From: Bryobacterales bacterium
Lineage (GTDB): Bacteria > Acidobacteriota > Terriglobia > Bryobacterales > UBA6623
DNA: 64,000 nucleotides
NCBI GenBank assembly: GCA_965204095.1
Contig: OZ241991.1
Location: 1,360,290 to 1,424,289, forward strand
Direction of reading: 5' to 3'
The stretch's first letter is position 1, and each line of letters begins with the position of its first letter. The notes under the pieces were generated by a model. It made no database searches. It was not told the DNA's origin and worked only from the letters and a program-made list of their open reading frames with translations. A program made the translations under genes and the position numbers. Below, one piece after another: positions 3,611 through 63,591 of this stretch.

Positions 3611-3733
3611 GGACCCTCCTTATGTCGTGCTACCGTTTTCTAAGGTGTGCAAAGCAAGTCAACCGGCCACCTGACGCACGAATCGCCCGTCCCCTGTGGT
3701 GGGTGAGAACTGGTCCTCGTACCGCAACGCTAG

Positions 3734-5779: not shown

Positions 5780-6556
5780 ATGTCGGACACGGAAAGGCCT
5801 GACAAGCCGCACGCCACCATGGTTGCCCGCGCTCTCCGGATCATGGAGACACTGGACAGTTCCCGGCGCGGCTTGAACATTTCCGAGATCAGCCGCAAGC
5901 TGGGCATCCCCAAGAGCAGCACGCACGTCATCATTCTCACTCTCGAAGAGCTTGACTATGTGAACAAGGCGCCGTCGACGCGCCGCTACTCGCTCGGATT
6001 GAAGGCCTACGGACTCGGCCAAAGGATGATGAAGTCGTTCTCGATGGCCGAGGTCGCGCGGCCGGTGATGCAGAAACTCGTGGATAGCACCGACCTGACG
6101 AGCCACCTCGCTGTGCTCGACAAAGGTCAGGCAGTATGCATTCAAAAGGTCGAGCCGCCCAGTTTGATCCAGTTCGACACCAGGATCGGTCGCAGAATGG
6201 ATCTTCATTGCAGCGGCGTCGGAAAGGTGATTCTCGCCCACAGCGGGGACGATCTGCTGCAGGATTTCCTATCCAAGAAGGTCTTTATTCGGCACACGCG
6301 CAAGACGATCAGTTCGTCGCAAGCCCTGGAGCGGGAAACCATGAAGATTCGCCGGCAGCGATACGCGCTGGATGATCAGGAAGAGGAGTTGGAAGTCCGC
6401 TGTGTGGCCGTTCCGGTCTTCAACCGGCTTCACGAGTTCTCCGGAGCCCTCAGCGTTACCGGAACGACAGGTCAAATCCCAATCAGCCGCATCAAGTCTC
6501 TCGTCAAGGTTCTCAAGCAAAGCTCCTCCGATATCTTCGACGTTCCCATCCTCTGA
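5780..6556 (+). CDS. IclR-family transcriptional regulator
   Basis: 258 aa. N-terminal winged HTH (ALRIMETLDSSRRGLNISEISRKLGIPKSSTHVIILTLEELDYV) and a C-terminal IclR effector-domain-like region. The stop TGA (6554-6556) directly abuts MITE copy 4. Confidence 0.9.
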   Translation: MSDTERPDKPHATMVARALRIMETLDSSRRGLNISEISRKLGIPKSSTHVIILTLEELDYVNKAPSTRRYSLGLKAYGLGQRMMKSFSMAEVARPVMQKLVDSTDLTSHLAVLDKGQAVCIQKVEPPSLIQFDTRIGRRMDLHCSGVGKVILAHSGDDLLQDFLSKKVFIRHTRKTISSSQALERETMKIRRQRYALDDQEEELEVRCVAVPVFNRLHEFSGALSVTGTTGQIPISRIKSLVKVLKQSSSDIFDVPIL

Positions 6557-6829
6557 CCTGTATTTCTCACCACGTGGCGAGGCGAAGTGCGTGAGAGGGC
6601 CGTCAGGACGAGGTGCAACCCGGGCGGAGGAAAAAGGCGCGCGCAGGCGTACTTGCCGAATCGCTTCCTTCACCCCTCGGGTCAAGAAACACGGCCTTTA
6701 GCGTTCACAGGCCGTCGGACATTTCTTCTGGAGCGAACCAAGCCTCACCGAATGCTTTTCACGAGACACGAATCACGAATCACGGCCTTTTATCGCGTGC
6801 TTCAACCGTCGGGTGGTGAGAAAGGCAGG
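6557..6829 (+). mobile_element. MITE copy 4 (chimeric, 273 bp)
   Basis: Both MITE termini are present (CCTGTATTTCTCACCAC ... GTGGTGAGAAAGGCAGG), with flanks CTGA / CTAA. The central ~50 bp is replaced by ~135 bp (about 6654-6790) that includes a heptad block CACGAGA CACGAAT CACGAAT CACGGCC (6760-6787), the same block type as in the 13-14 kb array. Confidence 0.85.
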
Positions 6830-6932
6830 CTAAGCGGCACCAGGTCGTTCGGAGTGCCGGACGAGCCTTCGCGGACAGCGGCTTGGGCGCTGTTTCGTGA
6901 GTTCCACGCCGTGCCGGCTACAGAGCTGTCCT

Positions 6933-9155
6933 TCAGAAATGGACCGGCTGAGCGAGAGCGCCGTTGCCTGCCGAATCGAACGCGGCGAAACGCACCCACT
7001 TCTTCCCTTTGGTGCGAATCGGTATCCGGAAGCGCTTGCTGGAGTGCGGAGCCAGATCAGTGGTCGAGATGATCCGGCGGCTGACCGTCTTGCCGTCACC
7101 CCAAACGACTTCCACGAAGTCGAGGGGGAACGTCCATTCGACTTGGGCCGAAATGGTTCTGTCGTCGCCGGACCCTTCCACTGCGTATTCACTAATGAGG
7201 ACCTCGCCGCTCGTCACGAAGAAGTCACCGGCGCGCATGGCGCTCGTGATCGGGCTCCAGTCCTCATTGAAACGCGGCAGCGGGTCGACCTTGATGTAGT
7301 TGACGAGCAGCTCGCCATAGATCTCGTCTTCGGGAAACTTCATGTAGGTGTCACCCTCGGATACGAGATATTTCGGGCCGGACCAGTTATTCATGTCATC
7401 GAGCACGCCGATGCAGCGGGACTCGCAGATACGCTTCTCGGAGAGGTCGACGGGCAGTGACTGGTAAGCGCCGCCGAGGTAGCGGTCGCTATTGAAGTGA
7501 GCCGTCTCGCGGATGGCGTCGGGATAGGGCGTCGAACCCTTCGTGCGCGGATGAGCTTGCCAGATGAGTCCCTGCTCGAGCTCGAGGAGTTCCAGCATAT
7601 CCTTCGCGGAACCGGTGCGATATACCTTGCCGAACTTCGGATGGTCCTCGACGAACGGCTGACCGGCTAGCCGGACTTTTGTCCAATACACGGGCTTGGG
7701 GAAGACAGCCGTGTAATGTCCACCGATATGCGCGTTCGGCTCTTCACCGGGCATGAGCAGAAATTCGCGGTCGGAGTGGCGGGCGCAGGCCTTGAAATAA
7801 CTATCGAGATCGTTGTAGCGAATGTCGCCGGAGTCGTCCGGGGAGCCATCTCCGTGGAAATCGCTCATCATCGCGATGTTGATGCCGAGAGCGCGGAACG
7901 CGGGCAACCACGGCGGCCGAAAATCAAGGGTTCCCGCGTCCAGTAACTGCTCGGCAAAATGCGTGTGGAAGTGGCTGACCGCCACTTGATAACCCTTGAG
8001 GGGCTTGAATTGGTCGTTGTGGGTAAAAGCCAGCACGGCTCGCTGCGTCTCCTCCCAGGCGGCAGGGCTCAGATAGAAATAGGCCGCCATGCGCTGCCAG
8101 GTGCCCGGGGGGGCGTTGTACATGGCGAAGTTCCCGAGCGCGAAGCGCCTGGACTGGTTCAACCGCTTTCCCCATAGCTCATCCGAGACGCCATAGGGCC
8201 GGAACATCTCTTCGTAGTCGCCATGGCGAACACCGGCCGAGAACGATCCCTCGTCGTCCATGCGGTACCAGACGTAGCCGAGGTTCAACTCGATCTCGCG
8301 CGCCCAGAAAAACTTGTGCGACGGAGGGAAGAATGCAAGGGTGCCGTTGGGTGTTTCGATGAGACCGAGGCGATTGCGCGCACGCAATGCCACTGGACCT
8401 TCGTTGACCGTGCCGCCAAACTCGTACTTCTGCCAGGCGCGCGACACATCCCGCCAGCGGACGCGGCTGCCCTCCGTTGAAAAGCCCTTCAGCCCGGCGC
8501 GGTATTTGTAGGCAACGGATGGCTCGTCTGTTTTTGCGATCACTTCTTGACGGATGAGATTCGTGCCGCGGTAGACGGTGTACTGCAGGCGCCCCGAGAA
8601 GATGCCCATCGAAAGGCCGGGAAATGAAACCTCGATGCGCGCGCCGTCCGTTTTTACCTTGCAACTCGTAGCGTTGTAAGTGGCGGGGGAGCGGCGAATT
8701 TCATCTTCACGTCGGGGCAGGTCGGTGTTGACGCCTTCGAGCCCCGGAACGCGGAGAGGCGCATCCCAAAAGACTTTCCACTTTTCTTTCTCGATCACAG
8801 CGGGAGTGATTGGCTGCCCCAGGTCCCGGATAGGGTTCAGTTGCTGGTGCGAGATACGACGCACACCGCTGGTAACAAGAAAATCCGGCTTGAGGTCGGT
8901 AGCGACGGGCTTCCAGGACCAATCGGGACCGCGAACGGCCATCTGACGAATGACAGGCTGTGTGCCATCAATCCCGAAGTCGAGCCGCAGGCTGGAGCCG
9001 CGCTCGCCCGTCCAGTGGACAGTAAGCGTATCGTTGTCGAGTTTTGCCTGAAGCCCTTGCTGCTCCTGATAGGAGCTCATGTCGCAGTTGAGGACGGCGC
9101 TCCCGGAGCTCAGTGGAAGAAGGAAGAGAACGAGGGTGACAAGTGTTTGGCGCAT
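6933..9155 (-). CDS. secreted hypothetical protein (C-terminal half has metal-hydrolase-like His clusters, e.g. VSHFHTHF, MSDFHGDG)
   Basis: Long ORF. The track start (9404) lies inside MITE copy 5, so I re-set it to MRQTLVTLVLFLLPLSSGSA (ATG at 9155), which looks like a signal peptide. The function is not recognised; the His motifs are only suggestive. Confidence 0.7.
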   Translation of the reverse strand: MRQTLVTLVLFLLPLSSGSAVLNCDMSSYQEQQGLQAKLDNDTLTVHWTGERGSSLRLDFGIDGTQPVIRQMAVRGPDWSWKPVATDLKPDFLVTSGVRRISHQQLNPIRDLGQPITPAVIEKEKWKVFWDAPLRVPGLEGVNTDLPRREDEIRRSPATYNATSCKVKTDGARIEVSFPGLSMGIFSGRLQYTVYRGTNLIRQEVIAKTDEPSVAYKYRAGLKGFSTEGSRVRWRDVSRAWQKYEFGGTVNEGPVALRARNRLGLIETPNGTLAFFPPSHKFFWAREIELNLGYVWYRMDDEGSFSAGVRHGDYEEMFRPYGVSDELWGKRLNQSRRFALGNFAMYNAPPGTWQRMAAYFYLSPAAWEETQRAVLAFTHNDQFKPLKGYQVAVSHFHTHFAEQLLDAGTLDFRPPWLPAFRALGINIAMMSDFHGDGSPDDSGDIRYNDLDSYFKACARHSDREFLLMPGEEPNAHIGGHYTAVFPKPVYWTKVRLAGQPFVEDHPKFGKVYRTGSAKDMLELLELEQGLIWQAHPRTKGSTPYPDAIRETAHFNSDRYLGGAYQSLPVDLSEKRICESRCIGVLDDMNNWSGPKYLVSEGDTYMKFPEDEIYGELLVNYIKVDPLPRFNEDWSPITSAMRAGDFFVTSGEVLISEYAVEGSGDDRTISAQVEWTFPLDFVEVVWGDGKTVSRRIISTTDLAPHSSKRFRIPIRTKGKKWVRFAAFDSAGNGALAQPVHF

Positions 9156-9293: not shown

Positions 9294-9470
9294 CCTGCAT
9301 TTCTCACCACGCGGCGAGGCGAAGTGCGTGAGAGGGCCGTCAGGACGAGGCGCGAGCCGCTTGGCGCGCGCAGGCGTACTTGAACCGTACGTTGAGCACG
9401 GCAAGCAAGCGCAACGAAGTCCTGGCGCTCGTATCGTGTGCTTCGACCGTCGGGTGGTGAGAAATGCAGG
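9294..9470 (+). mobile_element. MITE copy 5 (subfamily A, 177 bp)
   Basis: Same terminal IRs. Perfect TSD TTAA (9290-9293) / TTAA (9471-9474). Confidence 0.9.
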
Positions 9471-9568
9471 TTAAATGCGGACGCGTTGTTTGGGCGAAGC
9501 CGGCAGATCCGGTCGAGAACCTTGGGGGAATAACAGGACCAGGAGGGAAGAAGAGGGGAGCGCCACTC

Positions 9569-11146
9569 CTATTTCTCAAGCAGGAAGTTGCCGGCGATCA
9601 TGGTGTCTATGCCGGAGGAGTAAAAGCTGCGGACAGCGGCTCGGGGATCGTTGACAAGGCGTTCTCCGAAGAGGTTGAAGGATGTGTTGTAGAGCACAGG
9701 CAGTCCGCTGACTCGGCCGGCGGCTTGCAGGAGTTCCCAACAGAGCGGGTTTTCGGCCCGGCGGACGGTATGAACGCGGATGCGGTCGCCACCGAGCAGA
9801 GCGGCCTCGAACGTCTTGCGATGTTTCTGCTTGACGCGGCTGACCGAGGCGAGGAATCGCGCGCTTTCGGTGCAATCGAAGTAGTCGGACGCCAGTTCCT
9901 CGGGGACCGACGCAGCAAACTTGCGGAAGAGCTCACGGCGCTTGATGTAGACGTTGAGGTTCTCGGTGGAATAGGGATTGAGCGGGGAGGCGAAGATGCT
10001 GCGATTGCCGAGGGCGCGCGAGCCGAACTCCATGCGGCCTTGGAACCAGGCGACGATCTGGTTGTCGTTGAGGCGGCCCACGGCGGTGTCGACGACGGCC
10101 TCGTCGGTGGTGAGGTAGCTGAAACGGAGCTTGCAGTTTTCGAGGACTTGCTTGATCTCTTCCCGGTCATAGCAGGGGCCCAGGAAGAGATTGTCAAGCG
10201 GATGGCGCTGAGTGTTTCGGCAGGTTTGATGCCAGGCATAGAAAGCGCAGCCGAGGCTGGTGCCGGCGTTGCCGGCGGCCGGTTGGACCCAGACGTTCTT
10301 GTAGCGGCCGGACGTTTCGAGAGCTGAAACGAGCGGCGCGTTGAGCATGAGGCCGCCGGCCAGACAGAGGTTCTCGCCCTCGCCGGCGAAGCGAACGACG
10401 ATGTCTTCGACAGCACTCTGGACGCTGGCCGCGATGTCGCGGCGTTCCTGCTCGGAGAGTTTCGCCCCGTATTCAAGCCCGAGCCTCGCATAGAAGCGAT
10501 CACTGAATCCGCCTGCGGTGGGGCGCGAAGTATCGAAGAAACCTTGGTTCAAGACCGGCCGTGGGGTACTCCCGGCGCCGAGGATTTCCAGGAACATGTC
10601 GCGGAAACGCGGCTCGCCGGCGGCGCCCATCCACTGGACTTTGTGCTCTTCGGCCCCGATGCGATAGCCGAGCAATTCCGTGATGCGGCTGTAAAAACCG
10701 GCGGGAGAGTCCGGTGCATAGAGTTCTTCGACCGCCTCCAAGCGTGTTCCTGCGGCCTCCCATAGAGCGCCGCAACGCATGTCTCCGACCCGGTCGAGCG
10801 TGACGACGCGCGCTTTTTCGAAGGGCGAAGGGTAGAAGGCGCTGGCGGCGTGCGCGATATGGTGGTCAACGATGACCAGCCGGCTTCGGGGAAACTGTGT
10901 CTTGAGGCGAAGGTGCTGGGAGGAATCGGAACCGCCTCCCATGGGCCGCGCGATGGCGACGCAATCGACATCATTTCGGGACGCCGAAACGACGTGGAGG
11001 CAAGCGTCGACGGCTCTTTCGGGAAGCCCCCCTGGGTGAGCTTGGCGGCGTAGTTTGTCCTCCTCCATGGCGGCAACAAGTCGGCCGTCCTTGAGCAGAG
11101 CGGCCGCGCCGTCATGCAGCCAGCCACCGATTCCGAGTATCAGCAT
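9569..11146 (-). CDS. carbamoyltransferase (NodU/CmcH family)
   Basis: MLILGIGGWLHDGAAALLKDGRLVAAMEEDKLRR... and a C-terminal ...LPVLYNTSFNLFGERLV are typical of the family. The first ATG (11146) shares 1 nt with the gltX stop codon, which suggests an operon. Confidence 0.9.
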   Translation of the reverse strand: MLILGIGGWLHDGAAALLKDGRLVAAMEEDKLRRQAHPGGLPERAVDACLHVVSASRNDVDCVAIARPMGGGSDSSQHLRLKTQFPRSRLVIVDHHIAHAASAFYPSPFEKARVVTLDRVGDMRCGALWEAAGTRLEAVEELYAPDSPAGFYSRITELLGYRIGAEEHKVQWMGAAGEPRFRDMFLEILGAGSTPRPVLNQGFFDTSRPTAGGFSDRFYARLGLEYGAKLSEQERRDIAASVQSAVEDIVVRFAGEGENLCLAGGLMLNAPLVSALETSGRYKNVWVQPAAGNAGTSLGCAFYAWHQTCRNTQRHPLDNLFLGPCYDREEIKQVLENCKLRFSYLTTDEAVVDTAVGRLNDNQIVAWFQGRMEFGSRALGNRSIFASPLNPYSTENLNVYIKRRELFRKFAASVPEELASDYFDCTESARFLASVSRVKQKHRKTFEAALLGGDRIRVHTVRRAENPLCWELLQAAGRVSGLPVLYNTSFNLFGERLVNDPRAAVRSFYSSGIDTMIAGNFLLEK

Positions 11147-12585
11147 CAAACCTTCCGCAACCGATCGATGACACAGTCGCGTCCGAGGATAGTGAAAATT
11201 GCGAATGCGCTAGGCCCGACGGACTGCCCGCTCAGCGCCGCGCGAGCACCGTTGATCATCAGTCCGGCTTTCATGCCCCGCTCTTCAGCCAAACTGCGAA
11301 GGGTGGTCTCGACGGACTCGCTGGTGAAGTCGTTCAAGGTTGCGAGACGATCGGCGAGTGCGCGAAGGGATTCACGGACACCCTCTTTGTTGAGGTTCTT
11401 TTCGGCCTTGATGTCGGTCGGGAACGTGTCGTTGAAATAAGCCGCGCCGCGCTCCGTGAAGTCCTTGAGGGTATTGAAGCGTGAACGGATGAGATCGACC
11501 GTGGATTCGAGCGAGGCCTTCCGGCCGGCTTCGTATTGGGGACGCCACCAGCCGGCCTCGCGGAGTTCGATTTCAACATGGGGAAGCAAATCTCTCACGG
11601 GCAAGCTGCGCAACTGTTGGCCATTGATCCAGAGCGCTTTGGGGTCGGCCCAGCTCTGCTCGGAGTCTTCGTCAAACGTAACGACGGCGTTGGTGCGGTT
11701 GACGCTTTCCAGTTTGAACAGCTCGATCAACTCGTTGCGGGTGAGCAGTTCTTGATTGTCTTTCGGCGACCAGCCAAGCAGGCACAGGTAGTTGATGATG
11801 CCTTGAGGCAGAAAGCCGTGATCGCGGTAGTTCGTGACGCTGACGATTTCGCCATGCCTGCGCTTGGAGAGTTTCGAACCGTCAGGGCCGAGCAGCAGCG
11901 GCAGATGGGCGAACTCGGGCGGATTCCCGCCCAGCGCCTCGAACAACAGAATGTGCTTGAAGGTGTTGGTGAGGTGGTCCTGGCCGCGGATGACGTGCGT
12001 AATGCCGAGGTCCGAGTCGTCGACGCTGGAGGCGAGGTGATAGGTCGGCGAGCCATTGCTCCGGAGCAGGGCGAAGTCCTCGATGTCGGCGATCTTGCGA
12101 GACTGTTCGCCGAACACGTGATCGTGGAAGGTGACGGTACGGTCGGTCCCGTGGGCCACGCGGAAACGGATGACGAACGGCTCGCCGGCGCTGGCTCGGC
12201 GCTCGCTTTCATCCTGTGTCAGTTCCCGCATGGCGGGGTTGGCGAGACGTACTTCGGCGGCATCCTTGGCTTCGGGCAAAGCGCTTTGCCGGGTGAAGTC
12301 GCGATAGGCAAGTCCTTTGGCGAGAAGAGCTTCGGCGGCCTCGACGTGCTTCGTGCGGCGCTCGGACTGATAGTGTTGCTCGTCCCAGGGCAGTTCGAGC
12401 CAGCGCAGGCCGTCGATGATGGATTGGAGAGCTTCGTCAGTGCTGCGCTCGCGGTCGGTGTCGTCGATCCGGAGGACCACCTTCCCGCCGTGCTGACGAG
12501 CGAAGAGCCAGTTGAAGATGTAAGTGCGAGCCCCGCCAATGTGCAAGAACCCCGTTGGGGATGGCGCAAAGCGAACGCGTGTCAT
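11146..12585 (-). CDS. gltX: glutamate--tRNA ligase
   Basis: MTRVRFAPSPTGFLHIGGARTYIFNWLFAR (HIGH motif) and ...KLSKRRHGEIV (KMSKS-like motif). About 480 codons. The ATG at 12585 sits one codon inside the track start. Confidence 0.95.
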   Translation of the reverse strand: MTRVRFAPSPTGFLHIGGARTYIFNWLFARQHGGKVVLRIDDTDRERSTDEALQSIIDGLRWLELPWDEQHYQSERRTKHVEAAEALLAKGLAYRDFTRQSALPEAKDAAEVRLANPAMRELTQDESERRASAGEPFVIRFRVAHGTDRTVTFHDHVFGEQSRKIADIEDFALLRSNGSPTYHLASSVDDSDLGITHVIRGQDHLTNTFKHILLFEALGGNPPEFAHLPLLLGPDGSKLSKRRHGEIVSVTNYRDHGFLPQGIINYLCLLGWSPKDNQELLTRNELIELFKLESVNRTNAVVTFDEDSEQSWADPKALWINGQQLRSLPVRDLLPHVEIELREAGWWRPQYEAGRKASLESTVDLIRSRFNTLKDFTERGAAYFNDTFPTDIKAEKNLNKEGVRESLRALADRLATLNDFTSESVETTLRSLAEERGMKAGLMINGARAALSGQSVGPSAFAIFTILGRDCVIDRLRKV

Positions 12586-12825
12586 CAAGAGTCGGAGGAG
12601 AAACGCCGGGGTTCAGGCAGGAAGCGGATGTTGTGGATTCGCCCGCCGTGTTCGAGGGCTCAGTATAGCAATCGAGGTCAGATTGCCCCGGATGTGGCGT
12701 CTTGCTCCGGGGCCGGTCAGCCTTTACGGGCAGGTCGACAAGTCTGTGAAAGCACATGACAGGAGTGACTTGACGGTCCGTGGTGAAATCCCGTGTAGCA
12801 CCGGCAGCGGGGCTCTTGCCATTAG

Positions 12826-13001
12826 CCTGCATTTCTCACCACGCGGCTAGGCGAAGTGCGTGAGAGGGCCGTCAGGACGAGGCGCGAGCCGCTTGGCGCG
12901 CGCAGGCGTACTTGACAGTACGTTGAGCACGGCAAGCAAGCGCAACGAAGTCCTGGCGGTCGTACCGCGTGCTTCGACCGCCGGGTGGTGAGAAATGCAG
13001 G
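12826..13001 (+). mobile_element. MITE copy 6 (subfamily A, 176 bp)
   Basis: Same terminal IRs. Flanks TTAG (12822-12825) / CTAG (13002-13005). Confidence 0.9.
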
Positions 13002-13005
13002 CTAG

Positions 13006-14070
13006 CCACTGCATTTAAGCTTTTCACGAAACACGAATCACGAGACACGAATCACGGCTTTTATGCTTTTCACGAAACACGGCCTTTCCCGTGGCTCGTT
13101 TGGTACCTGTTGGTACTGAAGCCCTTCAGTCTTGTTTTTTCGGCCGGAATCTGCTCTGGGTTGAGAGTGATGACGCCGTTGCTGGGAACGAAAACCTAAT
13201 CCACGCCCGTCGGGGACGCGCCGGCTGGATACAACAAAGTCGCCCAAGTCACGGCCTTTCAGGTATTTACGAGACCCGAGACACGAAACACGGCTTTAGC
13301 CTGGCGCGCGGCGCAAGCCGGCGCGAATTCCGAGGTATTCACGAAACACGAGACACCAGACACGAAACACGGCTTTTTTCAGACCCGAAACACGGCTTTT
13401 CCGTGGCTCGTTTGGTACCTGTTGGTACTGAAGCCCTTCAGTCTTTTTTTCGGCCGGGGGCTGGTTTAGGTTGAGAGTGATGACGCCGTTGCTGGGAACA
13501 ACAAACCCATCCGCGCCCGTCGGGGACGCGCCGGCTGGAGACAACAAAACCGCCCAAGTCACGGCCTTTCAGGTATTTACGAGACCCGAGACACGGCCAT
13601 TGCCAGGCGCGAGGCGCAAGCCGGCGCGAATTCCGAGGTTTTCACGAAACACGAAACACGAATCACGGCTTTTTTTCGAATCACGGCCTTTGTTGTGGCG
13701 CGGCATGGGGCGGCTATGGCGCGGCATGGGCGGCGACCGTCCCCCGCACCGGCAACACGGGTTTATGCATTTCACGAGACACGAGACACGAATCACGGCC
13801 TTTGGGGTGCTGAAGCCCTTCAGTCTTTTTTTCGGCGGAAGCCGGTTTAGGTTGAGAGTGATGACGCCGTTGCTGGGAACAAAAAACCCTTCCGCGCCCG
13901 TCGGGGCCGCGCCGGCTGGAGACAGAAGAGCCGGTCGGGCCACGGACTCCAAGGTTTTTCACGAAACACGAGACACGGGTTTGCTTGGCGCGCCGCGCAA
14001 GCCAGCGCGAATTCCGAGGTTTTCACGAAACACGAGGCACGAGACACGAATCACGGCTTTTATGCTTTTC
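13006..14070 (+). repeat. non-coding tandem array: 3.3 units of 302-381 bp, each containing CACGARA heptad runs
   Basis: Conserved 30-mer GTTGAGAGTGATGACGCCGTTGCTGGGAAC at 13160, 13470 and 13851. Hairpin plus T-run (CTGAAGCCCTTCAG then T7-9) at 13116, 13428 and 13810. GC hairpin with GCAA loop (GGCGCAAGCC) in each unit. Heptad runs at 13025-13058, 13071-13084, 13268-13294, 13340-13373, 13384-13396, 13578-13598, 13643-13669, 13677-13688, 13773-13800, 13960-13979 and 14024-14057, all in the same orientation. ORFs across it are not conserved in frame between units. Confidence 0.85.
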
Positions 14071-14077
14071 CTCCCAC

Positions 14078-14107
14078 CATTTCCCGGCATTTCCCGCTAT
14101 TTCCCGG
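14078..14107. repeat. 3 x 10-bp direct repeat (CATTTCCCGG CATTTCCCGC TATTTCCCGG) followed by A7
   Basis: Read directly from the sequence. One helical turn per repeat. It lies between the tandem array and the dehydrogenase gene. Confidence 0.7.
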
Positions 14108-14450
14108 TAAAAAAATTACTGCCAACCAAGTGCCCCCGAGCGCTGCAGCAACTTGGAAATCGGCTTGATGATCAGTCCGTAGTGAAATCCCGCTTGGCGC
14201 CGGGAACGGCGCTGCGTCCGGCGGACGAGGCGCGGCCGGAGAGCATATGGGACCTGTTCGACCGGGAAGCAACGCAATTCAGCCGGGATGCATCGCCGCT
14301 TGAATGCAGAGAGGCTTTTGCCACGGACTGTAATGAAGAAGTGTCATGGAGATAGAGTGGGGTTAGTGAATGGAGGAGAAACACATGAGCCGCAATCGCG
14401 AGCAGCCACGCCACGGTTCTCTCCATTTTGTGTGAAACTCTTAACTGGTT

Positions 14451-15464
14451 ATGAAGATCGCGATCTTGCATGGGCCGCGGAACTTGCGGATTGAAGAGCA
14501 TCCCCTGGATACGGAAAACCTGGCTCCGGATCAGATTTGGGTCGAGACGGAGATCACGGCGCTCAAGATCGGCACCGACCGCGGGAACTACGAAGGCGCC
14601 GAGCAGGTGCCGGGCGCGCCGGACTTTCCCCGCTGGGTTGGCGATAGCAATTTGGGGATAGTACGCGGAGTGGGCTCGGCGGTGACGCGGTTTGCGGTGG
14701 GCGACCGCGTCGTGTCCCGGTACCACCATCAGTCGGAGTACGTCGCCAACGAGTCGGAGTGCATTGTGAAGGTGCCGGAGGGCGTAGACCCGGAGGACGC
14801 GGTTTATTCGCATCTTTACGCGCTTAGCTCCAAGTGTTACCGCAAGGCGCACTTTACGCCGGGAGAGAACGTGGCGGTTGTGGGACTTGGCGTGTTGGGT
14901 TTAGGCGCGGTTGCGCTGGGGCCTCTTTTCGGGGCAAGGGTGATCGGACTGGGGAACAGCCCGGTTCGGCTGGAGATGGCGAAGCGGATGGGGGCGCATG
15001 CGGCGTTCCTTTCGACAGATCCGGACTTGCACAACAAGCTGGACGAGTTTACGAATGGGACTGGTGTGGACTTGGTCATTTTGACTGCGAATCCGTGGCC
15101 GGCCTACCGTACCGCGGTGGAGACCGTGCGGCGCAACGGGCGGGTGTCGATCGTGGCGCTTTCCGGGCGTGGCGAAAAACCGCTGAACTTCAATCCGCTG
15201 GCAATGGAGTATTTCTACATCAAGGGAATCTCGCTGATCGCGGTTTGCGAGACAGACGGTTACCTGTATCCTTCACGGGAAGAACGGTTCGACGACGAGC
15301 GCTCGTGCGAACATGTGCTGTCGCTGATGCAGGAAGGCCGGCTTGAGCCGAAGCGATTGATCACGCACCGGTTTCCTTACACGGATATGGTCGAGGCCTA
15401 TGAGATGGCATACCGGCGCGAGAAAGAAATGCTGGGTGTGATCTTCCAATGGAAGGATGTGTAG
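14451..15464 (+). CDS. zinc-type (MDR family) alcohol/threonine dehydrogenase-like oxidoreductase
   Basis: 337 aa. MKIAILHGPRNLRIEEHPLD... and a GLGVLGLGAVALG nucleotide-binding glycine motif, as in the MDR family. Confidence 0.85.
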   Translation: MKIAILHGPRNLRIEEHPLDTENLAPDQIWVETEITALKIGTDRGNYEGAEQVPGAPDFPRWVGDSNLGIVRGVGSAVTRFAVGDRVVSRYHHQSEYVANESECIVKVPEGVDPEDAVYSHLYALSSKCYRKAHFTPGENVAVVGLGVLGLGAVALGPLFGARVIGLGNSPVRLEMAKRMGAHAAFLSTDPDLHNKLDEFTNGTGVDLVILTANPWPAYRTAVETVRRNGRVSIVALSGRGEKPLNFNPLAMEYFYIKGISLIAVCETDGYLYPSREERFDDERSCEHVLSLMQEGRLEPKRLITHRFPYTDMVEAYEMAYRREKEMLGVIFQWKDV

Positions 15465-58449: not shown

Positions 58450-60468
58450 TCATGCCCGACGACGGTTGGGTAACCGCGATTCCGGATCCCAGATGATCTC
58501 GCACTCAGGAAGCACGGCCTTGAGCCGCTCGTGACCCTCCTCGGTAATGAGCGTGTGATACACATTGAGAAGCTCAAGCCGCTTAAACCGCCCCAACAGC
58601 CGCACGCCACGATTGGTTACATAGGTATTATCGAGGTTCAGGACACGAAGTTCCGCGAGCGCTTCCAGATGGCACAGCCCGTCATCGGTGACATCCGTGT
58701 GCTCGAGATTCAAGTGCTTCAACCGGGTCAACTCCCCGACGATTTCCAGGCCAGCGTCCGTGACGCGGGTACGCAGGAGGTCCAGTCCTTCCAACTTCGT
58801 CAGAGCGCTGAGGTGGGTTAGTCCGTCATCGGTGAACCGCCCGTACTTCAGAGACAAGCTTCGCAGGTTCGTCAGCGACTTCAGGCTAGCCATCCCCTCG
58901 TCACCGATGTCGACGCTTGTCAAGTCCAGTCGTTCAAGACCTTTCAGCTTCTCCAGATGACGCATGCCCTGGTCGGTAACATCGGTGTATGCGAGACCCA
59001 GGTCTTCAAGCCAGGTCACCTGGCTCAACAACGCCAGCCCGTGGTCATTGATCGGCGAGCCGTTCAACGTCAGGCTGCGCAGCGCGGTCGAATGCAATAG
59101 ATGGGAAAGCCCCTCTCCCTCGACGTAGGTGTTCCGCAGCGACAGGTTTTGCAGGTTCGACAAACCCGCGAGATGACGCAGCCCCTGATCGGAAACGGTC
59201 GTGTTGTCGAGACGCAACTCGCGCAAGCCCCGCAACCCGGCCACGTACTGAAGGCCAAGGTCACCCACCTCCGTCGCTCCCAGATCGAGTTTCCGTAAAT
59301 TCGGAAGATTCTTCAGATGAGCCAACTCCGTGTCGCTCATGGCCGTCGAGAGCAGTGAGAGCGAAACCAGTCTGCCTGCTTGAAGGGAGGCTTCCCCGCC
59401 CCACTTCCGAACCCAAGCAGCCACCGACTCTCCGTCGCCGGCCACGGGAGGTTCCGGATTCCGACTGAGTCGCGGCGGCCGGAGTGAGACGTCAAGGAAG
59501 ACGATTCGGGCGCTCGGCAACGCCGCCCGTAGCCGCTCTACGCCCGCTTGCGTAACCCGCGTGTAGCGCAAATCGATTTCGCGAAGGCCGGTCAACCCGC
59601 GCAGCTTCGCCAGACCCGCATTGCTGATCTTCGTTCGATAAAGATTCAACTCCTCGATCGCCGTAAGTCCCTGCAAGTAGTCGAGCCCGACATCGGTCAG
59701 TGCCGTCCCCATCAGATTGAGCTTGCGCAAACCCCTGAGGCTGCGCAGATTCATGAGTCCCGTGTCGCTGAGATTCGTCCCATGCAGGTCGAGCTCGATC
59801 AATCCCGAGAGGCCAGCCAGCGCGGCTGCTCCTTCATCCGTAATGAATGTGTCGCCCATTCGTAGTCGTCTGAGCGTCTTCAGATCGGCGATCGCGCTCA
59901 GCCCCTCGTCATCGAGCTGAGAAAGGGTGACGTCCAATGACTCCAGCCGCCGAAAGGGCGCCAAAGCATGACCCTTCACTGCCGTCTGCCGAAGAACCAA
60001 CTCCCGCAAGTCGGTCAGCTCGCCGATTGCTTCCAGGCCCTCATCCCTGAACCGGATGTTGTCCAGAAAGTGGTAGCTGAAAGTCAGCTTTTGCAGCGTA
60101 TGGATGCCGGAAAGATGTCCCAATTCGCGGCTGAGTTGCTTGCCGCCGTCGGCATTTCTGTTCCAGATGGGCCCGGGAAGATGGAGCGCCTTCAGCCGCG
60201 ACAGCCCTTTGAGGCGCGCCAAGTCCTCCGGAACGACATTCGTTCCAACGAGATCGATTCCGGTCAACCAGACATCGGACACCGGGAGGCTGTCGGTGTT
60301 CCGAACCCACCCTGACGAGCTTTCCATCTCGACCCCGCCACCCATTGCCAGAGCCCACTCGGCGACGCGCCGGTCAACCTCGGCCGCACCGGAAACACTC
60401 GACGAAAGCAAGGTTGCCAACACTGGAACGAGTAGCCGGCATGCGCGATCTGCGAGAAAAACCGTCAC
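58450..60468 (-). CDS. leucine-rich repeat (RNI-like, ~24-aa repeats) secreted protein
   Basis: More than 20 tandem L..L..L.L..T.(V/I)(T/S)D.GL..L repeats. Signal peptide. GTG start. Confidence 0.85.
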   Translation of the reverse strand: MTVFLADRACRLLVPVLATLLSSSVSGAAEVDRRVAEWALAMGGGVEMESSSGWVRNTDSLPVSDVWLTGIDLVGTNVVPEDLARLKGLSRLKALHLPGPIWNRNADGGKQLSRELGHLSGIHTLQKLTFSYHFLDNIRFRDEGLEAIGELTDLRELVLRQTAVKGHALAPFRRLESLDVTLSQLDDEGLSAIADLKTLRRLRMGDTFITDEGAAALAGLSGLIELDLHGTNLSDTGLMNLRSLRGLRKLNLMGTALTDVGLDYLQGLTAIEELNLYRTKISNAGLAKLRGLTGLREIDLRYTRVTQAGVERLRAALPSARIVFLDVSLRPPRLSRNPEPPVAGDGESVAAWVRKWGGEASLQAGRLVSLSLLSTAMSDTELAHLKNLPNLRKLDLGATEVGDLGLQYVAGLRGLRELRLDNTTVSDQGLRHLAGLSNLQNLSLRNTYVEGEGLSHLLHSTALRSLTLNGSPINDHGLALLSQVTWLEDLGLAYTDVTDQGMRHLEKLKGLERLDLTSVDIGDEGMASLKSLTNLRSLSLKYGRFTDDGLTHLSALTKLEGLDLLRTRVTDAGLEIVGELTRLKHLNLEHTDVTDDGLCHLEALAELRVLNLDNTYVTNRGVRLLGRFKRLELLNVYHTLITEEGHERLKAVLPECEIIWDPESRLPNRRRA

Positions 60469-60516
60469 CAGAAACCTGCCGGAATTGTATCAGGCCACCC
60501 CAGTTCACCCTCCTAG

Positions 60517-60664
60517 CCTGCATTTCTCACCACCCGACGGTCGCAGCACACGATACGACCGCCAGGACTTCGTTGCGCTTGCTTGCCGTGCTCAACGTAC
60601 TGTCAAGTACGCCTGCGCGCGCCAAGCGGCTCGCGCCTTTTTCCTCCGCCCGGCTTGCGCCTAG
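60517..60664 (-). mobile_element. MITE copy 12, left part (interrupted by the IS)
   Basis: Starts with CCTGCATTTCTCACCAC after TSD CTAG (60513-60516). Colinear with copies 8-10 up to ...GGCTTGCGCCTAG (60664). Confidence 0.9.
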
Positions 60665-62398
60665 CCCGGAAATCTCACCAGGGGGTAGGAAAAGGGCTGC
60701 CTGGTGTGGCATAAAACATTTATGTCCAAAACGTTAGCGCCACAAGCCGAAAGCAGCCCTATGACAACAGAGTGTACTCAATGCAGCTTCACCTTCGCCA
60801 AGCATTTTCGGCGCCAGGTGAGCGCCCGCTTCGACGGCGGGGTGATCAGTTCCGACGGCGGCGCGCTGCTGTTGCGCGAGGTGGACCAGCGCATCAACCT
60901 GCTACCGCGCTTGGCGGCCTGCTTCGAGGATGGCCGCGATTCGCGGCGCATCGAACACCGGGTGGGGGAGTTGGTCTCGCAGCGGGTCTACGGACTGGCG
61001 CTGGGATACGAAGACCTCAACGATCACGACGAGTTGCGCCGGGATCCGCTGGTGGCGCTGCTGGTGGGCAAGAGCGACGTGGGCGGGCAGCAGCGCCGCC
61101 GCGAGCGTGACCGCGGCCAGCCGTTGGCGGGCAAGAGCACGTTGCAGCGACTGGAACGAACGAGCGACGGGCTGGACCGCTATAAGAAGATCCGCTGCGA
61201 CAGCGCAGCGATCGACCGCCTGTTGGTGGACGTGTTTGTGGAAGCGCAGCAGCAGGAGCCGGCCGAGATCATTCTCGATATCGACGCCACCGACACCCCT
61301 TTGCATGGGCAACAGGAGGGGCGTTTCTTTCACGGTTACTACCGACACTACTGTTACTTGCCGCTGTACATCTTCAGCGGCGAGCACGTATTGTGCGCGC
61401 GGCAGCGAGTGGCGAATCAGGACGCGGCGGAGGGCAGCGTGGCGGAACTGAAGAGGATCGTGGCGCAGATCCGGGGAGAGTGGCCGGAGGTGAGGATCAT
61501 CGTGCGCGGCGACTCCGGGTTTTGTCGGGACGAGTTGATGGACTGGTGCGAGCAGAACGGAGTGGAGTACGTGTTGGGGCTGGCGCGCAACGAGCGGCTG
61601 CGGTCGCTGATCGACGAGGCCCTCGACGAGGCGGCAAGGCAGCAGCAGCAGACGGGCCGGCCGGCGCGGGTCTTTACGGAGTTTGAGTACCAGACGCTTG
61701 AGAGTTGGAGCCGGGCGCGGCGGGTGGTGGGGAAGGCGGAGCAACTCGTGGGCAAGGAGAATCCGCGCTACGTGGTGACGTCACTGGATGCCGAGAGTTG
61801 GCCGCCGCAACGGTTGTACGAACAACTCTACTGCGAGCGAGGCGAAGCGGAGAACCGCATCAAGGAGCAGTTGAGTCTGTTCGCGGATCGCATGAGCAGC
61901 GAGACGCTGCGGGCCAATCAGTTGCGGCTGCATCTGTCGTCGCTGGCGTATGTGTTGCTGGTGGGGCTGCGGCGGCTGGGGCTGGAGGGCACGCAGTGGG
62001 CGCGGGCCCAGACGGAGACGATCCGGCGGGGGTTGTTGAAGATCGGGGCGCTGGTGAAGGTGAGCGTGCGGCGGGTGCAGCTGTCGCTGGCCAGCGGCTA
62101 TCCCTATGAGGAGGCGTTCGCGGCGGTGTATCGGGCACTGCGTCCGCCGGGATGCGCAACGGTTTGAGAACACCGAGTGAGCCCAAAAACAGCGTTCCTG
62201 GGGCGCTCTGCCGGGGCCGTAGGGCTAAGTGGGTCTGCTGTCGGCAACAACCCCAAAAACGGACGTTGGCGGGTCGCCGGGGGCGGTAGAAAACGCCCCG
62301 TAGCGGCCCTCGTCCCTCCTCCCCGTGAGGATTCCGAGCTTCAGACCCTATTGTGGCCCCTCTCAACCCTTCGCAATGCCGCTGGTGAGAAATGCGGG
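60665..62398 (+). mobile_element. IS1380-family insertion sequence (1,734 bp)
   Basis: Ends CCCGGAAATCTCACCAGG... and ...CTGGTGAGAAATGCGGG (24/35 IR match). Flanked by CTAG (60661-60664) and CTAG (62399-62402). Single transposase ORF. Confidence 0.88.
60722..62167 (+). CDS. IS1380-family DDE transposase
   Basis: FDGGVISSDGGALLLREVDQRINLLPRLAACF...GLALGYEDLNDHDELRRDPL...ILDIDATDTPLHGQQEG..FHGYY... is an N-terminal pattern I recognise from IS1380-type (DDE_Tnp_1-like) transposases. 481 aa from the ATG at 60722. Confidence 0.88.
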   Translation: MSKTLAPQAESSPMTTECTQCSFTFAKHFRRQVSARFDGGVISSDGGALLLREVDQRINLLPRLAACFEDGRDSRRIEHRVGELVSQRVYGLALGYEDLNDHDELRRDPLVALLVGKSDVGGQQRRRERDRGQPLAGKSTLQRLERTSDGLDRYKKIRCDSAAIDRLLVDVFVEAQQQEPAEIILDIDATDTPLHGQQEGRFFHGYYRHYCYLPLYIFSGEHVLCARQRVANQDAAEGSVAELKRIVAQIRGEWPEVRIIVRGDSGFCRDELMDWCEQNGVEYVLGLARNERLRSLIDEALDEAARQQQQTGRPARVFTEFEYQTLESWSRARRVVGKAEQLVGKENPRYVVTSLDAESWPPQRLYEQLYCERGEAENRIKEQLSLFADRMSSETLRANQLRLHLSSLAYVLLVGLRRLGLEGTQWARAQTETIRRGLLKIGALVKVSVRRVQLSLASGYPYEEAFAAVYRALRPPGCATV

Positions 62399-62454
62399 CT
62401 AGTCCTGACGGCCCTCTCACGCACTTCGCCTCACCGCGTGGTGAGACATGCAGG
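62399..62454 (-). mobile_element. MITE copy 12, right part
   Basis: CTAGTCCTGACGGCCCTCTCACGCACTTCGCCTCACCGCGTGGTGAGACATGCAGG, then TSD CTAG (62455-62458). It continues exactly where the left part stops. Confidence 0.9.
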
Positions 62455-63591
62455 CTAGCGCATCATCTCGTCCCAGGTCACAGTGCGACCGGTGTCCATC
62501 GCCATTCGCCCCATGATGGCGGTGAGCGTGCTTTCCGCTCCGCGAATGCCGACGTTTTCGGTCTTGCCCTGGACGATACGCTTCACGAACGCCTCCATCG
62601 AGTCGAGATCGATGTGACGCGGGGCGTCCTGGTGAAGCACGTCGCCACGGTCGCGATAGTGCTTCCAGTAGCCGCGGGCCGTCTCGACCATTGATTCAGA
62701 GCCCCAAACACGTTCATGAACCTCGCGGTAGAAGAGGGGCATGATGTGAGACCCTACCAGTGTCGCTCGGATGTTGTCGGGATATTCAAAAACGACGGAG
62801 ATGTGATCTCCCATATCGCCCGCTTTCTTGATCGTTCGTCCGCCTCCGGCTACCGCCTTGATCGGGTGCCTGTCGCCAAGAGACCAGTTGAGAACATCGA
62901 TCGAGTGACAATAGGTTTCGACGACGATGTCCCCGTAGAGGTCGCGCCACCACTTCCATTCACGAACTTTGTCGTGGAGTGTCACGGGGCGTTCCCGCGG
63001 GGGCTCTTTGCCGCTGACGGTGCCTTTCAGAAAGTGGGCTTCAGCCTGGTGGATCTTGCCGAGCCCGCCCGAGTCGATCACTTTGCGGGCTTGCTTATAC
63101 GTCCAGCCGTAGCGCTGCTGGAACCCGAACGTGACGTTGAGTCCGGGTTTGGCCGAGTCGGAGGCCTTCATGACCCGCTTGCAGGCCGCGACATCGACGC
63201 CGGCGGGCTTCTCCACGTAGACGTGCTTGCCGGCTCTGACGGCCGCCTCCAAATGTTCGGCGTGCAGAAACACCGGCGTTGCGATGATGACCGCGTCGAT
63301 TTCGTCGCTCGCGAGCATCTCGTTGTAGTCCAGGTAGGTTTTCGGGTTCTCGATCGGGATACGCTGCTTGGCTTTTTCGATCTGCTCCTCGAAGAGGTCG
63401 CACAACGCGACGAGCCTCGCCCCCGGAACCTTGACCAAGCGGCTCGACAGACGGCTTCCACGTCCGCCGGAGCCAAGGAGACCGACCCGAACCTCCGAGT
63501 TCGCGGCGCTTCCGCGAACCGCCGCAAAGGGAACCATCGCCGCTGCTCTCACAAGATTGCGCCTACTGACATGTGCTTTAGTGTTTTTCAT
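62455..63591 (-). CDS. Gfo/Idh/MocA-family oxidoreductase with TAT signal
   Basis: MKNTKAHVSRRNLVRAAAMVPFAAVRGSAANSEVRVGLLGSGGRGSRL... followed by family-typical ...IDAVIIATPVFLHAEH...GKHVYVEKP. The stop codon (rc TAG, 62455-62457) lies in the TSD of MITE copy 12. Confidence 0.88.
   Translation of the reverse strand: MKNTKAHVSRRNLVRAAAMVPFAAVRGSAANSEVRVGLLGSGGRGSRLSSRLVKVPGARLVALCDLFEEQIEKAKQRIPIENPKTYLDYNEMLASDEIDAVIIATPVFLHAEHLEAAVRAGKHVYVEKPAGVDVAACKRVMKASDSAKPGLNVTFGFQQRYGWTYKQARKVIDSGGLGKIHQAEAHFLKGTVSGKEPPRERPVTLHDKVREWKWWRDLYGDIVVETYCHSIDVLNWSLGDRHPIKAVAGGGRTIKKAGDMGDHISVVFEYPDNIRATLVGSHIMPLFYREVHERVWGSESMVETARGYWKHYRDRGDVLHQDAPRHIDLDSMEAFVKRIVQGKTENVGIRGAESTLTAIMGRMAMDTGRTVTWDEMMR

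Follow-up and report, generated by a model that had tools for sequence, protein, structure and literature searches.

We analysed a 64,000-nucleotide stretch of DNA from a Bryobacterales bacterium (the window; contig OZ241991.1), in which the divergent genes gltX and that of a Zn-dependent dehydrogenase are separated by 1862 bp. This 1.86-kb gap contains a tandem array of non-coding modules (Table 1), one member of a dispersed family that is the subject of this report. Stretches retrieved from relatives for comparison, either genome loci or metagenome contigs, are labelled L001 to L047.

A preliminary description of this DNA had outlined a gene-free array at 13006–14070. The open reading frame (ORF) listing indeed shows no gene there, and the region is confirmed except for its right border, since a terminal module places the true end at about 14125. 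The 30-mer GTTGAGAGTGATGACGCCGTTGCTGGGAAC that anchors the repeat units is found exactly at 13160, 13470 and 13851, as described, and at no other site in the window (0 expected by chance). The three units lie head to tail, spaced 310 and 381 bp. Tandem Repeats Finder (TRF) detects a period of 310 with 2.1 copies and 87% matches over 13023–13659, and a repeat search of the window returns three-copy families with spacings of 310/381 and 303/381. Runs of a heptamer, also described before, are evident from 27 matches to CACGARWCACGG with at most one mismatch (1.7 expected), 22 of which fall within 13025–14056. Immediately 5' of the array lies a complete miniature inverted-repeat transposable element (MITE), the sixth copy in the window, in agreement with the description.

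The array is built from cassettes (P-T-A-B, G, W and E) with heptad tracts (CACGARW)n between them, and all modules have one orientation throughout each array. The P-T-A-B core spans 140–170 bp and its parts are always kept together. The heptad joints, termed H, are 30–60 bp long and have the form AGGTTTTTC(ACGARWC)nACGGCTTTT, with imperfect heptamers CACGAAA, CACGAGA or CACGAAT and fixed borders (AGGTTTTTC on the 5' side, CACGGCTTTT on the 3' side). H tracts border every cassette, and cassette order and orientation are alike in every array: a first-type core, middle cores and a last-type core on the 5' side, followed by W, H and E on the 3' side. A reading as a CRISPR array was rejected, as the 'spacers' are about five recurring families and the joints are of variable length.

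Some details of the earlier description have to be corrected. The two hairpin motifs proposed for P and T are present, but as drawn they have two bases in common (GGTACT/CTGAAG), so that full formation of both is impossible. The T-runs following them are T6–T7 rather than T7–T9, unit 1 reading TCTTGTTTTTT. The 20-bp duplication regarded as an extra feature of unit 3 does exist at 13696–13734, but it is not private to that unit; it belongs to the W module, of which 16 further copies at other loci have this internal repeat as well. The E module of the window ends in A7, whereas elsewhere this module ends in poly-C of the C7-A-C7 type (L005 7584–7650, L007 2991–3060, L011 5992–6060). Such homopolymer tracts near gene starts could vary in length.

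Table 1. Modules of the array, its flanking elements and genes, and a MITE-1 variant elsewhere in the window
Feature	Position	Strand	Basis and remarks
MITE-1 variant, 279 bp	6554..6832	+	Interior replaced by ~100 bp ending in heptad tract
gltX, glutamyl-tRNA synthetase, left flanking gene	11146..12588	-	ORF; Pfam tRNA-synt_1c + Anticodon_2; points away from array
D8a, left copy of imperfect 39-bp direct repeat	12776..12814	+	79% identical pair D8; MITE-2 left end, 'b' subtype; aligns with L039 MITE-2 positions 4-48
MITE-1, full 182-bp copy	12823..13004	.	TA-flanked 20-bp terminal inverted repeats (TIRs) TAGCCTGCATTTCTCACCAC; inverted repeat I1; 93-97% identity to other copies
Array element start TAGCCACTGCATTTAAG	13003..13019	+	Near-copy of MITE-1 left end; same start in L009 and L012 arrays
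H, joint 1, two tracts AGSTTTTC(ACGARWC)nACGGCYTTT	13018..13089	+	Direct repeats D2, D3; heptad matches
Core 1, P-T-A-B, 'first-position' variant	13090..13232	+	94% identical to first cores of L003, L011
Core 1 P, hairpin GGTACC/GGTAC	13090-13115	+	
Core 1 T, palindrome CTGAAGCCCTTCAG + T-run	13116-13142	+	
Core 1 A, 30-mer	13160-13189	+	
Core 1 B, CCACGCCCGTCGGGG..	13201-13232	+	
H', degenerate heptad tract, joint	13247..13298	+	Repeat and heptad searches
G cassette GGCGCGCGGCGCAAGCCGGCGCGAATTCCGAGG, 'GCAA stem'	13303..13335	+	17-copy alignment
H tracts, joint	13333..13400	+	TRF, repeat and heptad searches
Core 2, P-T-A-B	13402..13542	+	P 13402-13427, T 13428-13452, A 13470-13499, B 13511-13542
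H', degenerate heptad tract, joint	13557..13601	+	Repeat and heptad searches
G cassette	13606..13638	+	17-copy alignment
H tract, joint	13634..13691	+	TRF, heptad search
W cassette, 21-bp internal repeat TGGCGCGGCATGGG(G)CGGCTA x2	13692..13760	+	TRF 13696-13734; D10; 17 W copies across loci
H tract, joint	13759..13805	+	TRF, heptad search
Core 3, T-A-B without P	13810..13923	+	T 13810-13834, A 13851-13880, B 13892-13923
H' tract, joint	13950..13983	+	Heptad search
G cassette	13987..14019	+	17-copy alignment
H tract, joint	14017..14066	+	TRF, heptad search
E cassette, 3'-terminal module	14067..14125	+	Three 10-bp repeats CATTTCCCGG, then A7; TRF 14078-14107; E copies in L005, L007, L011
Tail of inserted DNA	14126..14173	+	Common to L008; missing from L036, L038
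Resident MITE-2, ~160 bp	14174..14333	+	First 39 bp = D8b (14175-14213); same site in L036, L008; absent from L038
Zn-dependent dehydrogenase, right flanking gene	14451..15464	+	Pfam ADH_zinc_N; orthologues in L008, L036, L038, L039; array co-oriented

The array family is dispersed over many loci and several genomes. An exact 23-mer taken from the 30-mer matches 13 stretches in the genome collection, each of which belongs to a Bryobacterales metagenome-assembled genome (MAG). Ten of the 13 lie on the complete chromosome OZ242366.1, two of these being contiguous and thus counted as one array. The same modules form arrays of 0.5–1.4 kb at no fewer than 10 loci of a related complete Bryobacterales genome, with at least 11 such loci tallied for one genome, and family members are also present in two other MAGs and in one metagenome contig (L020). 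The MAG names APA_bin_29 and RHO3_bin_12 suggest sponge hosts, as far as names can. With an nhmmer profile of the core we counted 38 copies in the window and the retrieved loci; each array has between one and five cores. Of 20 matches to a degenerate 20-mer in metagenomes, 19 arose by chance, and L020 is the sole true member. No family members were found in viral, plasmid and phage collections, and a literature search by sequence strings and by topic yielded no description of the family.

Comparison of the cores reveals that their variants are positional and not locus-specific. Within the window the cores are mutually 79.5–88.7% identical over the stretch from T to B, whereas the identity of core 1 to first cores at other loci is 94% for L003 and for L011, which comes from another species-level MAG, 92% for L006 and 91% for L009. 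At 89% each, the first core of L003 and its counterpart in the orthologous L008 array are nearest to core 2. All six first cores form one cluster and all six last cores a second one, the last cores carrying a B' variant that runs into W. This clustering by position indicates that multi-core arrays were propagated as wholes.

L008, on OZ242366.1, is the orthologue of the window locus, with downstream DNA 91–97% identical. Its array has a different cassette string, with modules 75–87% identical to those of the window; it lacks core 1, possesses a core of another subfamily and is joined at a MITE fragment to a different upstream gene. Along OZ242366.1 arrays face both ways, which makes an orientation tied to the replichores less likely, though not decisively so.

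The MITE adjoining the array belongs to a family, MITE-1, that is abundant in the window. About 13 copies of 182–212 bp, including variants of 204–212 bp, occur in the 64 kb (3731–62457), approximately one per 5 kb, which is an unusually high density for a bacterial genome. TIR sites are located at 3731, 4661, 5471, 6554, 9291, 12823, 31888, 43440, 48303, 55694, 56636, 60514 and 62401/62457, and the window contains 25 TIR matches in total. The element duplicates TA, as can be seen by comparing an empty unit (CAACC-TA-AACCGG) with a MITE-filled array unit in L013.

MITE-1 is linked to the arrays in several ways. A single type of junction, 'H tract-CGCGTGCTTCGACCG... right TIR', is seen in the 279-bp variant of the window as well as in L003, L004, L007 and L012, tying the H module to the MITE family. 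Two arrays are enclosed exactly by MITE end-pieces: L003 is a composite of MITE(1–49), the array and MITE(144–183), and L001/L005 one of MITE(4–64), a 1.15-kb array and MITE(148–179), with the TGACC end variant on both sides. The left junction sequence of L006 is that of L003. In L006 and L010 only the left MITE-1 end-piece is present. Nine of the 13 arrays contain a MITE fragment or lie within 150 bp of one, compared with about a quarter expected by chance on a rough estimate from MITE density. The L001 junction is better read as a microhomology of 12–14 nt. Homology of the G cassette to the MITE centre was considered and rejected as not significant, its score lying at the 95th percentile of shuffles.

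Two transposase genes were seen inside MITE copies, and both belong to unrelated elements, a DDE_Tnp_1_4 insertion sequence (IS) and an IS110-like ORF. The former splits a MITE copy of the window (60513–62457) at position 58/59; the inserted element is 1.76 kb long and encodes a 487-aa DDE_Tnp_1_4 transposase (60704–62167), and a further partial MITE end lies at 62358–62401. In L013 (5783–7406) two MITE ends, 1.6 kb apart, surround a 410-aa ORF (6141–7373, minus strand), which by eye we take to resemble an IS110-family transposase (IGLDLAKH..., ...EIPGIGVQTA...). The IS110 family is known to target repeated palindromes.

Empty orthologous sites exist in close relatives. The adjacency of gltX and the dehydrogenase gene is retained in L036 and L038 with gaps of 467 and 308 bp, respectively, as against 1862 bp in the window, and the dehydrogenase proteins are 97 and 95% identical to that of the window. 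Window 12401–12814 aligns with L036 5349–5762 at 95.7%, and window 14175–14560 aligns with L036 5724–6110. A 39-bp segment of L036 (5724–5762) thereby matches both window 12776–12814 and 14175–14213. The extra DNA of the window relative to L036 amounts to 1399 bp and comprises the repeat copy, 8 nt, the MITE, the array and the 48-nt tail (14126–14173). A second empty allele is provided by L045 (UppS 96% identical), which lacks the TIR-bounded composite of L003. Here, the right boundary lies exactly at the right TIR plus TA, and the left border has 98 extra nt. In the more distant relatives L046/L047 (UppS 85% identical), a Y1_Tnp gene (9341–9793), of the IS200/IS605 type or similar to the transposases associated with repetitive extragenic palindromes (REPs), known as RAYTs, is situated near uppS. 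These contigs showed no array, no search aimed at its modules having been made.

The 39-bp repeat that bounds the extra DNA corresponds to the left end of a second element, MITE-2, and its left copy carries the centre of another MITE-2 subtype. Both a single crossover that integrates or excises a circle at the MITE-2 end and a second MITE-2 that was later disrupted would fit this arrangement. The 48-nt tail was tried as a MITE-2 right end, with no significant match. MITE-2 has the ends AGTCCGTrGTGAAAyCCCG ... GGCTTTTGcCACGGACT and is also found at window 12776–12822 and 41288, L005 2809–3120 and L039 208–372. The L039 copy occupies a different site from that in the window and is flanked by CTCTTAAC/CTTAAC, and the L005 copy is interrupted by MITE-1.

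With moderate confidence, we interpret the array as mobile mosaic DNA, one copy of a non-coding mosaic family travelling with MITEs in a narrow group of uncultured Acidobacteria. Of the two options between which the preliminary description did not choose, this is the satellite-like mobile module, favoured by the dispersal of the family, by the MITE parts that bound arrays and by the array-free site of close relatives. The family would be carried by, or would have grown inside, long members of the TA-targeting MITE family. Whole composites may have been moved in trans by the transposase of the MITE, or by recombination at MITE ends. H tracts and the T palindrome would then be the places where unequal recombination or template switching lets arrays grow, shrink and swap cassettes. 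Such an element would need no RNA or protein product, and effects on neighbouring genes would be a side effect.

Several observations weigh against this interpretation. At its left end the window array starts like a TIR, but a right TIR is not recognisable, both MITE end-pieces are present in only two arrays (L003 and L001/L005), and four of 13 arrays lack any MITE fragment up to 450 bp away. The ~170 kb of available DNA yielded no transposase whose ends match, and the 39-bp bounding repeat is unlike a normal target-site duplication. Furthermore, the core is conserved very unevenly. In 30 core copies, ACTGAAGSSCTTCAGTCT6-7, AGTGATGACGCCGTT, GGGAAC and CCCGTCGGGG are nearly invariant, while adjacent stretches vary by 30–50% and the spacer between GGGAAC and CCCGTCGGGG is variable in sequence but fixed in length. 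Plain selfish DNA would not account for such a pattern, which may point to a function that depends on sequence. Finally, in nine of 10 decidable loci the array is co-oriented with the downstream gene (only four to seven loci are informative).

The last two points would fit a cassette for transcription punctuation, in which the T palindrome and T-run stop incoming transcripts and an alternative-sigma promoter, the extracytoplasmic function (ECF)-like pair GGGAAC-N18-CGTC in A/B, restarts transcription, so that arrays both insulate and drive the downstream gene. Anti-oriented arrays between head-to-tail genes are absent, and arrays always begin with T and end with A-B followed by leader-like W/H/E modules. 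The last H tract of L004 is followed 27 nt later by the start of a gene that has a good Shine-Dalgarno sequence, and this gene must accordingly have its promoter within the array or upstream of it. However, the T hairpin is weak and absent from the minimum-energy fold (z of −0.25 for the T region of unit 3), and terminator-like sites are not enriched (5 found, 3.2 expected). The ECF-like pattern, searched as GGAAC-N16-19-CGTC, occurs seven times in the window, three of them in the array, against 4.6 expected, and is at chance frequency outside the array. Downstream genes start between ~115 and 1160 nt from the last A-B block, a tenfold range, and relatives possess the gltX/dehydrogenase pair without any array. 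Few loci are informative for orientation. We regard punctuation as unlikely. That the core of a mobile array also acts as a transcription boundary or as an RNA source is comparably unlikely. In one form of this idea the T-A-B core would be a mobile transcription boundary, and MITE-borne arrays would spread a common regulatory input to unrelated genes; in a variant, the units would give rise to small RNAs. Even taken together, we consider these two forms improbable. If the former were true, the targets would include the dehydrogenase, an outer-membrane barrel, an HlyD-type protein and cytochromes in these symbionts.

Other motif readings were set aside. No sigma-70-type promoter was detected in the array by a promoter scan, and no ECF sigma gene was found in the available DNA with a crude regular expression, which is a weak test. 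A sigma-54 reading of the 30-mer was dropped by eye since the −24 GG is missing, and a C/D-box reading (GUGAUGA ... CUGA) since the spacing is unfit for a C/D RNA. Single heptad tracts are also seen 12–100 nt 5' of co-oriented gene starts or against MITE ends (L004 7402–7452, L007 517–558, L010 388–428, L002 4460–4501), one in L004 ending 12 nt before an ATG.

The other option of the preliminary description, a tandem set of small structured RNA genes, one per unit and each ending at the hairpin and U-run, is favoured by the palindrome and T6–7 on one strand of every unit, by GC-rich stems with A-rich linkers and by the gene-free setting. The tests made of it gave no support, and we consider it very unlikely. 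The checks proposed along with it, against Rfam and for covariation, came out negative. At the gathering threshold Rfam gave no match in the window or 7 loci, and at E ≤ 10 nothing relevant was returned, the MITE hairpin alone weakly matching a plant miRNA model. Whole units fold no better than dinucleotide shuffles (z of +0.49 and +1.30 on the two strands). Locally, the P hairpin region reaches z values of −2.3 to −2.9, compared with −0.17 for the G stem and −0.73 for the B stem, and the stems drawn in the description are 93% paired, the same as in shuffles (190/500). RNAalifold on 30 copies gives −16.6 kcal/mol with compensatory change in none of the 26 predicted pairs, a test with limited power given stems that hardly vary. 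When all column pairs were scanned, only columns linked to subfamilies covaried, and in 17 copies of the G stem variation within the inner stem is confined to its 5' arm, the 3' arm being invariant. Since the contiguous unit is T-A-B, a single core would also have its terminator before the putative start. In addition, the locus is missing in close relatives.

The arrays might instead persist by promoting rearrangement or exchange of the genes beside them, with H tracts or T palindromes serving as sites of a dedicated recombinase or as hot spots of homologous exchange, as in the mosaic arrays of Neisseria discussed below. The centre of the T palindrome is CC in 15–18 copies and GG in 12 of 30, with invariant arms, which fits a DNA-level palindrome that flips. 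The orthologous L008 locus is rearranged exactly at the array and MITE, and a single crossover could have left the two copies of the 39-bp repeat as its reciprocal products, on the strength of one diagnostic variable base only. Syntenic neisserial arrays behave similarly (PMC1797815). No recombinase gene was seen beside any array, however, and cause is not separated from consequence in these observations; we think a primary role of this kind distinctly doubtful.

We give almost no credence to a local tandem duplication without relatives or to a degenerate or hidden protein-coding gene. A 294-aa ORF (13471–14355) does span units 2 and 3, and the sense strand has slightly fewer stop codons (192) than shuffles do (~238), yet this number is within shuffle expectation, as are the longest ORFs, and no ORF is consistent. 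In line with the earlier observation that no frame is conserved across units, the ORF starting at the ATG of the 30-mer is 9, 200+ and 164 aa long in units 1, 2 and 3, respectively, and this variation in ORF ends also disposes of a small peptide. The units differ in length by 71 bp, a number not divisible by three, and GC content at third codon positions is 0.47–0.63 compared with 0.75 in the flanking genes. Against a local duplication, the family is present at many loci of several genomes, and the units of the window diverge more from each other than from copies elsewhere.

Among known systems, the tandem-repeat-containing MITEs of animals and the neisserial mosaic arrays are closest to the array family; they have their logic in common with it and differ in sequences and joint type. 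By analogy, the family is best read as a bacterial tandem-repeat-carrying MITE or as an element similar to the Neisseria intergenic mosaic elements (NIMEs). DTC84 of the clam Donax trunculus is a tandem-repeat MITE with inverted-repeat flanks, up to about five core repeats and a microsatellite-like border tract (PMC3879986). Like the array family, it is non-autonomous and has ordered, position-specific core variants, a palindrome per repeat near the junction and a variable copy number (PMC3879986). The array family, in contrast, is bacterial, its cores are interleaved with G, W and E, and heptad tracts lie between all cassettes, whereas the tract of DTC84 lies at one end only. The target-site duplication is TA in the bacterial family and AA in DTC84, and only some bacterial arrays retain both ends. 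To our knowledge, no tandem-repeat-containing MITE has been described in a bacterium.

In NIMEs, dRS3 repeats flank RS cassettes in intergenic arrays, and the number and length of syntenic arrays vary among strains (PMC1797815). Both systems place a short joint repeat between cassette families and attract insertions of MITEs (Correia elements in NIMEs) and of IS, and both occur in genomes with a TA-duplicating MITE. The joint is a direct heptad microsatellite of 30–60 bp in the array family and a 20-bp inverted repeat, ATTCCCN8GGGAAT, in NIMEs; judged as dRS3 repeats, the heptad joints do not qualify. The array family further differs in having about five cassette families in fixed order and orientation, with no sequence similarity to NIMEs and no link to phage integration or antigen genes seen. 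The resemblance is therefore an analogy only.

The bacterial interspersed mosaic elements (BIMEs) of Escherichia coli are mosaic intergenic repeats built on REP palindromes and linked to RAYT transposases, and the BOX elements of Streptococcus pneumoniae have the structure boxA-(boxB)n-boxC and are shorter than 300 bp. Both resemble the array family in combining few modules in a set order with an internal module of variable copy number. Heptad joints and MITE end-pieces are confined to the array family, there is no sequence similarity, and no Y1 (RAYT) transposase was seen in the window or the array-bearing loci. The short tandemly repeated repetitive sequences of heterocyst-forming cyanobacteria are likewise heptamer tracts in intergenic DNA of one lineage; the array family differs from them in its heptamer, its imperfect tracts with fixed borders and their place as joints of a larger element. 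The NsiR1 small RNA array of Anabaena also consists of head-to-tail non-coding units of a few hundred bp with a hairpin and T-run. Unlike NsiR1, the array family has yielded no promoter, conserved fold or covariation, and it is dispersed and insertion-polymorphic rather than a single conserved locus.

Two genes in the analysed DNA encode proteins of 'eukaryote-like' repeat classes: a 672-aa leucine-rich-repeat protein in the window (58450–60468, minus strand), judged from its translation, and a Kelch-repeat protein by Pfam in L007 (636–2012). Such proteins would fit a host-associated lifestyle.

In this clade, short-read assemblies break at the arrays and at copies of both MITE families. Short-read metagenome contigs end inside MITE or heptad sequence (L036 8134–8211, L039 1–130, L045 6302–6331), and arrays are thus probably under-represented in public metagenome assemblies. 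Since arrays also create long false ORFs upstream of real genes, recognising them improves annotation. In view of the uneven core conservation and the orientation bias, promoter or terminator activity stays a testable possibility. If the interpretation as mobile mosaic DNA is correct, bacteria would host a transposon-to-satellite route known from animals, in which a MITE gains an ordered internal array and seeds the chromosome with it. Outside Neisseria, the family would then also add a second case of cassette-and-joint arrays that vary from one close strain to another and lie at points of rearrangement.

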